DNA of 1,877 bases, taken from Escherichia coli (GTDB taxonomy: Bacteria > Pseudomonadota > Gammaproteobacteria > Enterobacterales > Enterobacteriaceae). The DNA is taken from assembly GCF_003334255.1 (NCBI RefSeq), contig NZ_QOWU01000144.1; one strand, written 5' to 3'. Each line of letters starts with the position of its first letter. Position 1 is the stretch's first letter. Shown here one piece after another: positions 56-1,509 of the stretch. A model generated the notes under the pieces. The model did not search any database and was not told the origin of the DNA. It saw nothing but the letters and a program-made list of their open reading frames with translations. The position numbers and the translations under genes are program-made.

Positions 56-823
56 TCAGTAAGTTGGCAGCATCACCGTTTCACTGGACATTATCCAGGC
101 ATAATTATGTAACAGGGTTAATGCCTGAAGCGGTTTTCTCTGCGCAAAATAAGTATCAACACACATCTGCATCAAGGGGTAATTATTATTTTCCTTTGTT
201 CCTCCAAAGCTAAGATCTAATCCTTGTTCTTTAATGCACTGAATCACAGGATCATCCTGGAAATTCGGGACATCTGCGGCCTGTGACAGCAAATGAATGA
301 CTTTATTGTCAGGAACACCAAATGCCCAATTGCCAAGATAAGCATTAAGCGCAGCCTGTGCTGCAGCTTCTGTTTTTTTACATCGGCGATACTGGATTGC
401 CAGTGCTAACCAATATTCGCTGACTTCAGGCAATTGTTCTGTTGCTCGCTGTAACAGTGGCAGTGCGTCATCAAGCCTTCCCGTTGAAAGACATTTCCGA
501 GCAACACGGAAGAGATTTGCTGCAAAGTCTTGATCTTCGATGCTGATGCCATTTTCATGGGGATCATCATCATTCACTTCCAGCCATTCTTCGAACTTCT
601 TAATGCTGGAAAAGGCAGGTACGATTCGCCATTCGTCATGGTACGTTTCGCACACTATAGGTAGTTTATGCTCCTGACCAATAGGCCAGTACAAACCGAA
701 ACAGTCTCCGTTACCATATGCTGCATCTGTAAGTACGGTAAATCCGTTCGGAGGAAAAGGCCCCGGGCAAATTCCATCAATGCCAGGTGAAATATCACTA
801 CTGCGAGGAATAAGTTTCATCAT
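56..823 (-). CDS. Hypothetical protein, 255 aa (254 aa if the second ATG at 820 is the start). N-terminal SUKH/SMI1-KNR4-like motif region plus helical TPR-like C-terminal half; candidate immunity-type protein.
   Basis: Complete ORF in the supplied six-frame track, and 255 stop-free codons is highly non-random in AT-rich DNA. An AAGGAA Shine-Dalgarno sits on the minus strand (forward 825..830). It is only 1-2 nt from the first ATG (821..823) but 4-5 nt from the second ATG (818..820), so the second may be the true start. The product begins MMKLIPR and contains GNGDCFGLYWP ... YHDEWRIVPAFSSIKKFEEWLE, followed by a helical segment DDALPLLQRATEQLPEVSEYWLALAIQYRR. The family resemblance is from memory only. 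Confidence 0.8.
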   Translation of the reverse strand: MMKLIPRSSDISPGIDGICPGPFPPNGFTVLTDAAYGNGDCFGLYWPIGQEHKLPIVCETYHDEWRIVPAFSSIKKFEEWLEVNDDDPHENGISIEDQDFAANLFRVARKCLSTGRLDDALPLLQRATEQLPEVSEYWLALAIQYRRCKKTEAAAQAALNAYLGNWAFGVPDNKVIHLLSQAADVPNFQDDPVIQCIKEQGLDLSFGGTKENNNYPLMQMCVDTYFAQRKPLQALTLLHNYAWIMSSETVMLPTY

Positions 824-878
824 GTTCCTTCACATAAAAATTTATGTAAACATCCGCTTATCTGTTTATATAAATGTT
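824..878 (-). promoter_or_regulatory. Short AT-rich spacer between the two co-oriented minus-strand genes, carrying palindromic elements and the SD of the downstream gene.
   Basis: The inverted repeat ACATAAA-aa-TTTATGT at 832..847 lies immediately upstream of the SD (forward 825..830). A perfect 10-bp palindrome TTTATATAAA is at 865..874, and TTTATGTAAA (841..850) is a near-direct repeat of it. From the lines I sampled, this spacer looks like the most AT-rich stretch in the window. Confidence 0.3.
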
Positions 879-1301
879 TTAATCCCACCAACAAGTAACC
901 GGATGCATACCCACAGGGACTTCAACCCATCCATGCTCCGTATCTTCTGACCATCCTTCCCAGCACTCATCAGGGGCAATTTCTTCTACAAACCAGCTCT
1001 GAACTTCTTCTGGTGAAGCAGTGGTGATAACTAAAATACTTTCACTAAAGGGCCAGTCTGGGTCATCGAACATCGTAATTTCTACCAAAACATCACTAAC
1101 ATTGTTACGCTCACGTATTTTCAGAAAATGGTGATAGATAGCTTGCGGAGATTGTTCTGGAATCACATTGCAACATATTGAACCATGGATATTATTGTCA
1201 ATAAAAAAATCCTCAAGAGATAACAATGGACGAGGAGTATCAGGATTATTAACATCACCATTGATATTAACAAGTTGGGTAATGCGTTCTAAAGGTGTCA
1301 T
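879..1301 (-). CDS. Hypothetical small acidic protein, 140 aa from the preferred start (the track ORF extends to 1355, giving 158 aa). Trp-rich C-terminus; function unknown.
   Basis: The ORF track gives 879..1355. The in-frame ATG at 1299..1301 is preceded on the minus strand by AGGGAA (forward 1307..1312) with a 5-nt spacer, whereas the ATGs at 1353..1355 and 1326..1328 have no purine-rich SD. The product from the preferred start begins MTPLERITQLVNINGD and ends CWEGWSEDTEHGWVEVPVGMHPVTCWWD. By hand count it has about 26 Asp/Glu against 5 Lys/Arg. The TAA stop is at 879..881. Confidence 0.75.
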   Translation of the reverse strand: MTPLERITQLVNINGDVNNPDTPRPLLSLEDFFIDNNIHGSICCNVIPEQSPQAIYHHFLKIRERNNVSDVLVEITMFDDPDWPFSESILVITTASPEEVQSWFVEEIAPDECWEGWSEDTEHGWVEVPVGMHPVTCWWD

Positions 1302-1509
1302 AATTATTCCCTGAAATAATATATTCATCAAACGAATGACATTGTTTGAATTCATTAGCAGATAAATAGTGACAATTCCATACGTATTATTAGTTTCAAG
1401 AGCATCATAACATGAATGTTAAGCAGGAAAACGTGAGATATTCAGTCAGGCCGGGTCGTTATCCAGACGTTGTTATATTTAATATCATAAATATTTAAAG
1501 GGGTTTGAC
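1302..1509. promoter_or_regulatory. Divergent AT-rich intergenic region, presumed to carry the promoters for both the minus-strand gene pair and the plus-strand gene.
   Basis: A 208-bp non-coding gap lies between divergently oriented starts (1301 minus, 1510 plus). Weak sigma70-like hexamers are present: plus-strand TTGTTA at 1470..1475, and on the minus strand TTGAAA (forward 1394..1399), TTGTCA (forward 1370..1375) and TATATT (forward about 1318..1323). None has convincing -35/-10 spacing. An inverted repeat TCAAAC-N10-GTTTGA lies at 1328..1349. Confidence 0.45.

Follow-up and report, generated by a model that had tools for sequence, protein, structure and literature searches.

Ocr and ArdA are DNA-mimic anti-restriction proteins, and a segment bounded by two copies of insertion sequence (IS) 1 forms the Tn9-type composite arrangement. 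Immunity proteins of polymorphic toxins form a third described system, which includes heterogeneous polyimmunity loci and acidic, Trp-ended alpha+beta immunity (Imm) families (Zhang et al. 2012, PMC3482391). Here, we compare with these systems a stretch of 1877 nt from Escherichia coli (assembly GCF_003334255.1, contig NZ_QOWU01000144.1; the whole stretch is called the window), which carries the gene yfbO for a small acidic protein and parts of the neighboring genes yfbP and yfbN. A first-pass annotation, made from the sequence alone, had taken the yfbO and yfbP reading frames for an undescribed accessory pair, with toxin-immunity and anti-defense functions in mind.

The K-12 islet and its reading frames

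The window corresponds to the accessory islet yfbN/yfbO-yfbP of the E. coli K-12 type, bracketed by IS1 in the source strain. This identification is practically certain, since window positions 77..1800 match K-12 MG1655 (NC_000913.3, 2388136..2389859) in reverse orientation at 100% identity, with 0 mismatches over 1724 nt in a direct alignment, both IS1 ends are 100% identical to annotated IS1, and the truncation was mapped by residue. The genes yfbP, yfbO and yfbN were recognized in the window by megablast against 5,426 complete E. coli genomes. In the K-12 annotation, they lie between yfbM and nuoN as yfbO (b2274, 140 amino acids, aa), yfbP (b2275, 282 aa) and the divergent yfbN (b2273, 238 aa). 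The two supposedly new genes are therefore already annotated in E. coli K-12 and are not a new accessory pair, while the description of them as accessory and uncharacterized in function was right. Of the three genes in the window only yfbO is intact, as yfbP and yfbN are each cut by IS1. The window contains the following features (ORF, open reading frame; AF2, AlphaFold2; pI, isoelectric point):

1..77, minus strand: terminal 77 nt of IS1, the end beside the start of the transposase gene, with the IS1 genes on the minus strand (100% identity to annotated IS1 copies)
56..823, minus strand: chimeric 255-aa ORF made of yfbP codons 1-248, six IS1 codons (VMLPTY) and an IS1 stop (ORF list, comparison with K-12 YfbP)
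77..820, minus strand: 5' portion of yfbP (b2275), codons 1-248 of 282, predicted pseudogene (100% K-12 identity, Pfam TPR matches, AF2 model)
824..878, minus strand: yfbO-yfbP intergenic spacer of 55 nt, with a GAAGGA Shine-Dalgarno sequence ahead of the yfbP start (sequence)
879..1301, minus strand: yfbO (b2274), intact, 140 aa, pI 4.1, PF27222, compact alpha/beta fold ending in CWWD (K-12 identity, AF2 model)
1302..1509, no strand: AT-rich divergent intergenic region between yfbO and yfbN (sequence)
1510..1800, plus strand: 5' portion of yfbN (b2273), codons 1-97 of 238 up to the second IS1, tandem UBA-like region (100% K-12 identity)
1801..1877, minus strand: terminal 77 nt of IS1, the end distal to the transposase start, oriented as 1..77 (100% identity to annotated IS1)

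The first-pass annotation had described two minus-strand ORFs in the same orientation, and the ORF scan returned both (879..1355 and 56..823). From its most upstream ATG the first of these encodes 158 aa; the 140-aa form starts at the ATG at 1301, which is the annotated K-12 start of yfbO and the one at which all homologs begin, with MTPLERIT. From this start, 879..1301 encodes exactly K-12 YfbO (NP_416777) at 100% DNA identity, and the window copy differs from the K-12 gene in its surroundings alone, namely by the IS1 on both sides of the islet. An earlier hand count of 26 D/E versus 5 K/R proved exact (net charge -21), and the Trp-rich tail is likewise real, with six of 7 Trp at or after residue 103. 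The reported spacing of 55-58 nt also holds, as 55 nt (824..878) separate the genes up to the first ATG of the downstream ORF, and 58 nt up to the second ATG at 820. This second ATG, 3 nt past the first, is the K-12 start of yfbP and is common to its homologs. The region 1302..1509 presumably holds the promoters of both yfbO and yfbN; a promoter scan of it gave a single sigma-70-like match, on the minus strand at 1511..1484, and an Rfam scan of the whole window found no family.

The 255-aa protein of the first-pass annotation exists as a reading frame, but it is a chimera of truncated YfbP and IS1. It comprises one extra upstream Met, YfbP residues 1-248 identical to K-12, the residues VMLPTY and an IS1-encoded stop at 56..58. 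Native K-12 YfbP, named 'tetratricopeptide repeat protein YfbP' in RefSeq, has 282 aa. The IS1 junction falls directly after T248, which removes 34 C-terminal residues and with them most of the invariant ETxxFQERYxF motif; the invariant or near-invariant F251, Q252, R254, F257 and R278 are lost, together with the final helix. Because of this loss, the yfbP copy of the window is judged a pseudogene, and the 255-aa ORF does not correspond to a natural protein. Relative to K-12 yfbP, the window copy keeps identical codons 1-248 and the architecture of an N-terminal beta domain followed by a TPR solenoid, whereas it is 34 residues shorter, ends in six IS1-encoded residues and has no terminal helix. 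A comparable yfbP, interrupted by an independent nearby IS1 insertion, is annotated as a pseudogene by RefSeq.

Co-occurrence of yfbO, yfbP and yfbN

A functional link between the two genes had been proposed, and a lack of co-occurrence in other genomes was named beforehand as one outcome that would refute it. Six-frame translations of fetched loci (numbered with the prefix L below) were searched with hidden Markov models (HMMs) of the families, and neighbors within 5-10 kb were considered. A YfbP or YfbN relative was found at 0/15 non-E. coli YfbO loci, and a YfbO neighbor at 0/5 non-E. coli YfbP loci, four of which also had no YfbN. The proposed pairing failed this check. E. coli A42 carries the order nuoN-yfbO-yfbN-yfbM without yfbP, and Superficieibacter carries yfbL-yfbP-(yfbN-like)-nuoN without yfbO; YfbN is thus the sole gene found with YfbO in one case (A42) and with YfbP in the other (Superficieibacter). 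As far as the sequences can tell, yfbO and yfbP are inherited independently and are not a conserved pair across unrelated genomes. A 2776-bp contig from a 'Bacillota bacterium' metagenome-assembled genome (MAG), JAEWTL010000023.1, has 100% protein identity to E. coli yfbN-yfbO-yfbP; E. coli DNA contaminating the bin is the likeliest explanation.

Within E. coli, the islet was present in 1012 of 5426 complete genomes (~19%), and yfbO and yfbP were adjacent in essentially all of these. Since 983 of the 1012 islets are at least 99% identical, these co-occurrences amount to roughly one event. In most E. coli yfbM lies 66 nt from nuoN, while the K-12 type has a clean insertion of ~2.57 kb with yfbN-yfbO-yfbP, located between the yfbM stop codon and a hairpin terminator shared with nuoN (~7439..10009 of the K-12 locus L001). 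No flanking repeats surround the insertion in a comparison of K-12 with the loci L029/L030. The GC content of the islet is 36-44% versus 54-56% in the flanking nuo operon. To judge by these alignments, E. coli gains and loses the three genes yfbN-yfbO-yfbP together, and not two of them as a pair. The presence in 19% of E. coli, the low GC and the clean 2.57-kb insertion are the grounds on which we regard the islet genes as cargo.

The arrangement of yfbO and yfbP is that of a two-gene operon, with both genes on one strand, a 55-58 nt spacer and no terminator-like site in between. Neither a promoter nor a terminator match was found in 824..878, and its RNA fold was no better than that of shuffled sequences (z = -0.35). 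The two genes are thus probably co-transcribed in one E. coli lineage; our literature search found no statement on a yfbO-yfbP operon.

The two protein families and what they may do

Both YfbO and YfbP have full-length homologs in distant phyla (E 1e-40 to 1e-70) and are, for this reason, real genes and not chance ORFs. YfbO belongs to a compact family of ~140 aa and ~600 clusters, mostly from environmental metagenomes, with a mean column identity of 58% and 45-60% identity between E. coli, Planctomycetes and Woeseiaceae. Its hosts include Planctomycetes, Gemmataceae, Woeseiaceae, Tahibacter, Cellvibrionaceae and Actinomycetaceae, and some copies reside on Priestia/Bacillus plasmids. The conserved motifs are GSIxCN, FDDPxWPFSD, PDExW and a C-terminal CWWD. 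All homologs found with YfbO carry the precomputed label PF27222 'YfbO', while YfbO had no match in Pfam-A (a release older than PF27222), NCBIfam, PADLOC, PHROGs or PDB sequences. Two entries of the AlphaFold database (AFDB), A0A6D0FUI9 and A0A5C9A9U8, are 88-100% identical to YfbO and are named 'DUF551 domain-containing protein' in UniProt; since YfbO gave no DUF551 match, this name is probably a propagated misannotation.

The AF2 model of YfbO, built from the family alignment, had a predicted local distance difference test (pLDDT) of 93.8 and a predicted template modeling score (pTM) of 0.88. In a Foldseek search against AFDB, it resembled proteins labeled DUF4253, Immunity protein 7, DUF1963 and SMI1/KNR4 (E 1e-8 to 1e-13). 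The similarity was closest for those labeled DUF4253 (E 1.7e-13 to 1.4e-10, template modeling score, TM, 0.82-0.92), with an Immunity protein 7 label at E 2.4e-9 and TM 0.75; all these labels are unconfirmed UniProt names. No solved structure resembled the model. A profile search with the YfbO alignment among 5.8 billion proteins gave PF27222 members for all of the best 120 matches, with no bridge to DUF4253/Imm7. A Pfam Imm or SUKH model was matched by 0/58 YfbO-family members, whose sole Pfam match was one weak DUF1280.

YfbP is unrelated to YfbO at the profile level (hhalign). It consists of a five-stranded N-terminal beta domain (residues ~12-82) followed by a TPR-like helical solenoid (~96-274), as seen in an AF2 model from the family alignment (pLDDT 94.3, pTM 0.92). 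Its family measures ~275-290 aa, with a subfamily of 310-390 aa, and occurs in Leminorella, Superficieibacter, Janthinobacterium, Iodobacter, Tenacibaculum and Zunongwangia. In 150 representative clusters, the architecture was always an N-terminal domain (invariant GNGDxFGL...E...P...HDE), TPR and a C-terminal ETxxFQERYxF. Apart from fragments and one spurious beta-repeat protein, a search with the N-terminal domain profile against 1.84 billion representatives returned no other architecture, and the same profile found nothing among PDB sequences. Neither single sequences nor profiles gave a useful PDB sequence match for the proteins of the islet. The invariant columns N37, D39, E50, H61, D62, E63, E247, T248 and R254 are mostly polar or charged, and derive from both the beta domain and the C-terminal motif; this pattern gives a hint of one site for ligand binding or catalysis, as opposed to a simple scaffold.

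The first-pass annotation had called this protein SUKH-like or TPR-like. The TPR part stands, with a profile HMM match (the Pfam matches are TPR models only, at residues 96-167) and a solenoid of helical hairpins in the model. The SUKH part was not confirmed by the sequence tests: SMI1_KNR4 matched 1/67 family members, at E 0.036, and hhalign of the N-terminal domain against the SUKH profile gave a probability of 0.4%, a weak negative since that profile comprised 3 sequences. To the eye, the stretch GNGDxFGLYWP...PIVC..HDE...FSS..xF..WL is reminiscent of the C-terminal part of SUKH proteins, a beta-meander with a helix, and the model has five strands followed by a helix. Unlike SUKH proteins, however, the YfbP domain has no N-terminal helical half and is always accompanied by the TPR and ETxxFQxR architecture.

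The neighborhoods of YfbO homologs were mixed. In a 7.8-Mb environmental genome (L004, 3635..6797), a 382-aa LHH-domain toxin is followed by SUKH, SUKH, the YfbO homolog and a 103-aa ORF, with Tox-REase-5 nearby. A weak second match to the YfbO profile (E 2e-4, 6833..7057) lies just downstream of the 103-aa ORF. In a Woeseiaceae MAG (L006), the YfbO homolog comes after two DUF1963 genes. The companions in these two loci are two SUKH and two DUF1963 genes, respectively; other arrays contain only unannotated or DUF genes. Such same-strand arrays of small unannotated genes surround the homolog in L025 and on a Priestia plasmid (DUF6678, DUF4304, DUF3888); all plasmid copies of YfbO were on Priestia/Bacillus plasmids, within small-gene arrays. 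Other homologs adjoin a transposase, with an integrase 5 kb away (L024), lie near an AbiGI-like gene (L022) or occupy the cargo slot of a Gram-positive prophage, between endolysin and repressor (L031). The 1982-aa protein upstream of YfbO in L022 was considered as a toxin and rejected, as it is an adhesin of a type I secretion system. For the high-GC MAG loci L017-L023, naive ORF calling was too noisy for the neighbors to be annotated.

YfbP homologs have comparable surroundings. One precedes an array with a SUKH gene 5 kb downstream (L012), another a run of small unannotated genes (L010). An 896-aa gene upstream of YfbP in L012 was discarded as a toxin candidate, because by eye its product looks like a secreted Lys/Tyr-rich repeat protein, with no Pfam match on record, although no family search was aimed at it. 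In Iodobacter fluviatilis (L014, 6001..6843), the homolog is part of the cargo region of a P2-like prophage, with tail genes (gpU, gpD) on one side and the ogr/gpA region on the other; variable cargo is common at such positions in phages of this type. This homolog adjoins small genes, one of which has a weak PIN match. Several YfbO and YfbP loci (for YfbP, L013) have housekeeping neighbors only.

Each family thus appears separately in immunity-like or cargo-like neighborhoods, and to this extent the setting suggested earlier is supported. A toxin was encountered in 1 of ~16 non-E. coli YfbO contexts (L004, with two SUKH genes intervening) and not in the E. coli islet, and no YfbP locus contained a recognized toxin. 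A Pfam scan of 18 small neighbor genes detected DUF4304, DUF6678, DUF3888, GNAT and NfeD only, with no Imm or Tox model. PADLOC gave no match for YfbM, YfbN, YfbO or YfbP at E <= 0.1, and Pfam, NCBIfam, PADLOC and PHROGs together matched among these four proteins only the TPR of YfbP and, weakly, UBA_4 in YfbN. At its N-terminus, full-length YfbN shows two weakly UBA-like stretches (UBA_4, E 0.003).

Based on these results, we propose that yfbO and yfbP would not be a cognate two-component system, but two independently mobile single-gene cargo families that came to lie side by side by chance. YfbO would be an orphan immunity-type protein, a small acidic alpha/beta protein that binds and neutralizes a basic partner stoichiometrically. 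The best candidate for this partner would be the nuclease-type toxin domain of a polymorphic toxin, and E. coli would keep YfbO without the toxin, as in heterogeneous polyimmunity loci. YfbP would be a separate binder or adaptor, in which the small beta domain packs against the TPR solenoid and the invariant polar residues suggest a site for a specific ligand or partner; with this site destroyed by IS1, YfbP would be non-functional in the window. As a whole, this explanation, which combines the identity of the islet, independent cargo genes and an orphan immunity-type YfbO, is held tentatively, at a little under an even chance. Its immunity component, suggested by the cargo-like contexts, the acidic charge and the fold resemblance to Imm7/DUF4253-labeled proteins, is possible but more doubtful. 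We keep our confidence in it low because of the single toxin locus, the lack of an Imm model match, the high conservation and the polar positions that suit ligand binding or catalysis.

Several observations weigh against the immunity role of YfbO and the explanation built on it. At the only locus with an explicit toxin the SUKH genes are closer to it than YfbO, which is at most a candidate for its cognate partner. The link to Imm7/DUF4253 consists of AFDB names and fold similarity, unconfirmed by profile, with none of the 58 family members matching Pfam Imm. The conservation of YfbO and the polar and Cys positions of GSIxCN would be no less compatible with an enzymatic function or with a cellular target that is itself conserved. 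The co-transcription of yfbO and yfbP is itself a prediction. Finally, Keio deletions of yfbO and of yfbL resist phage N4, but not eight other phages, and ASKA plasmids complement them in trans (2025 bioRxiv preprint, 10.1101/2025.09.29.679331).

This last phenotype fits a different account, in which YfbO, and separately YfbP, would be a cellular factor whose conserved site serves ligand binding or catalysis, contributing for example to the envelope or exopolysaccharide physiology needed for N4 adsorption, and would not belong to a conflict system. The N4-specific resistance of both deletions, the housekeeping-only neighbors of several loci and the unusually high cross-phylum conservation, with GSIxCN, FDDPxWPFSD and CWWD in YfbO and GNGD, HDE and ETxxFQxR in YfbP, all point in this direction. 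We nonetheless consider it rather unlikely, as the gene is accessory and often IS-disrupted in E. coli, is dispensable in 81% of strains, matches no enzyme family or solved structure and has no conserved operon partner.

A second account, unlikely in our assessment, makes the three-gene islet the functional unit, with YfbN as the common partner of YfbO or YfbP in modulating toxin activity or phage susceptibility. In its favor, E. coli gains or loses the 2.57-kb block of three genes as a whole, and a YfbN homolog stands beside YfbO in A42 and beside YfbP in Superficieibacter. In a preprint on the retron-Sen2 TIC/TAC system, yfbN overexpression was a 'blocker' of the RcaT toxin (10.1101/2020.06.22.160242), and the N4 resistance of the yfbO deletion would also fit. 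However, YfbN is absent from 15/15 non-enterobacterial YfbO loci and 4/5 YfbP loci, yfbN is transcribed divergently from yfbO, and yfbO was below the cut-off of the retron screen and was pursued solely for its linkage to yfbN (10.1101/2020.06.22.160242). Moreover, the screens report overexpression and knockout phenotypes without mechanism, one of them in an unreviewed preprint. A more specific version, to which we assign a small probability, is an undescribed three-gene module in which YfbN, with YfbO or YfbP, would neutralize intracellular toxins such as RcaT and would also be needed for productive N4 infection. If this were true, YfbO would found a new and unusually conserved toxin-binding family, structurally related to DUF4253/Imm7. 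Deletion of yfbN also raised the yield of recombinant protein (PMC7376861), and YfbO was among the lactoferricin-B-binding proteins on a proteome chip (PMC3229523). The published phenotypes supply no mechanism, and we keep open both the YfbN-centered three-gene model and the cellular-factor model.

The pairing first proposed, with yfbO and yfbP as a cognate functional pair (toxin-immunity, co-acting, or binder and adaptor) on one transcript, now appears improbable. The genes share a strand across a 55-58 nt gap, whose spacer has no terminator-like element or significant structure, and they are adjacent in essentially all islet-carrying E. coli genomes. In addition, Foldseek located YfbO-like folds inside longer AFDB proteins labeled TPR (296 aa) and SMI1/KNR4 (363 aa), so that a YfbO-like domain can be physically joined to such modules. 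Yet that adjacency is nearly clonal and vanishes outside E. coli, each gene occurs without the other (yfbO in A42, yfbP in Superficieibacter), neither protein is toxin-like, no profile relationship connects them, and the source strain, which retains yfbO, gets by without the YfbP C-terminus.

Least probable is an Ocr/ArdA-like DNA mimic whose charge decoys DNA-binding defense enzymes: a net -21 and pI 4.1 in 140 aa, one relative in a prophage cargo slot and some on Priestia/Bacillus plasmids are outweighed by the lack of any PHROG or PADLOC match, by the absence of YfbO and YfbP from 50,697 phage records, by their near absence from the 2.9 million viral contigs of IMG/VR (1 YfbO locus, 0 YfbP loci) and by the chromosomal location of most YfbO copies in free-living environmental bacteria, so that the anti-restriction or anti-defense function first suggested is not borne out.

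As a genome feature, the window is minor: it comes from the best-studied bacterial chromosome and holds two named y-genes, one of them inactivated by a common insertion sequence. Its residual value is as a pointer to YfbO (PF27222) and YfbP, compact cross-phylum families without known function or solved structure. The phenotypes from two screens, the independent inheritance, and the immunity-like fold and contexts of YfbO narrow down the experiments worth performing on yfbO and yfbP.

IS1 boundaries and comparison with known systems

The IS1 ends, and the IS1-cut third gene yfbN that bounds the other side, had gone unmentioned in the first-pass annotation. The termini at 1..77 and 1801..1877 are opposite ends of the element in the same (direct) orientation. 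On the right, 1801..1877 equals positions 6019-6095 of locus L002; on the left, 1..78 equals 6710-6787 of the same locus, at 100% identity. The reference element in L002 is an IS1B copy with its transposase coding sequence at 6034-6731, and the left end was also matched in L003. Base 77 is common to IS1 and yfbP, which places the junction at 77/78. On the other side, yfbN is cut after codon 97, and its reading frame then runs through IS1 to the end of the window. An exact-junction search found neither junction in the 5426 complete E. coli genomes, which indicates that the double insertion is specific to the source. Among these genomes the islet is an IS hotspot, with IS1 at several positions, plus IS903B, ISVsa5 and ISKpn26. 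In one E. coli strain, IS1 lies beside a yfbP remnant and the stretch from yfbP to elaD is deleted.

Three arrangements would fit the 1877-nt sequence, namely two IS1 copies in the chromosome on either side of the segment, a composite unit of the Tn9 kind, or a circle of 2.49 kb; since the ends are opposite IS1 termini in the same orientation, a single IS1 copy could link the right end back to the left. A sequence that starts and ends inside a repeat also resembles a short-read contig broken in repeats. Like a Tn9-type composite, the window has a 1723-bp chromosomal segment between two IS1 ends in direct orientation. Unlike the composite, it includes 77 nt of each IS1, and nothing shows the segment moving; two independent insertions, or a short-read contig breaking in repeats, would give the same picture.

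Compared with Ocr and ArdA, YfbO is similarly small with a strong net negative charge, but it is not carried by phages or plasmid leading regions, resembles these proteins in neither structure nor sequence and matches no defense or anti-defense model. The immunity proteins of polymorphic toxins, such as Imm7 and SUKH, offer a further comparison, in which neutralization by YfbO is putative. YfbO is far more conserved than is usual for such proteins and mostly has no adjacent toxin, and the GxaG hallmark motif of Imm7 (PMC3482391) is not evident among its conserved columns. Like them, however, it is a small acidic alpha+beta protein whose C-terminus is aromatic and conserved, and its gene is accessory and low in GC, with one homolog in an LHH/SUKH/SUKH array and others in arrays of small genes.

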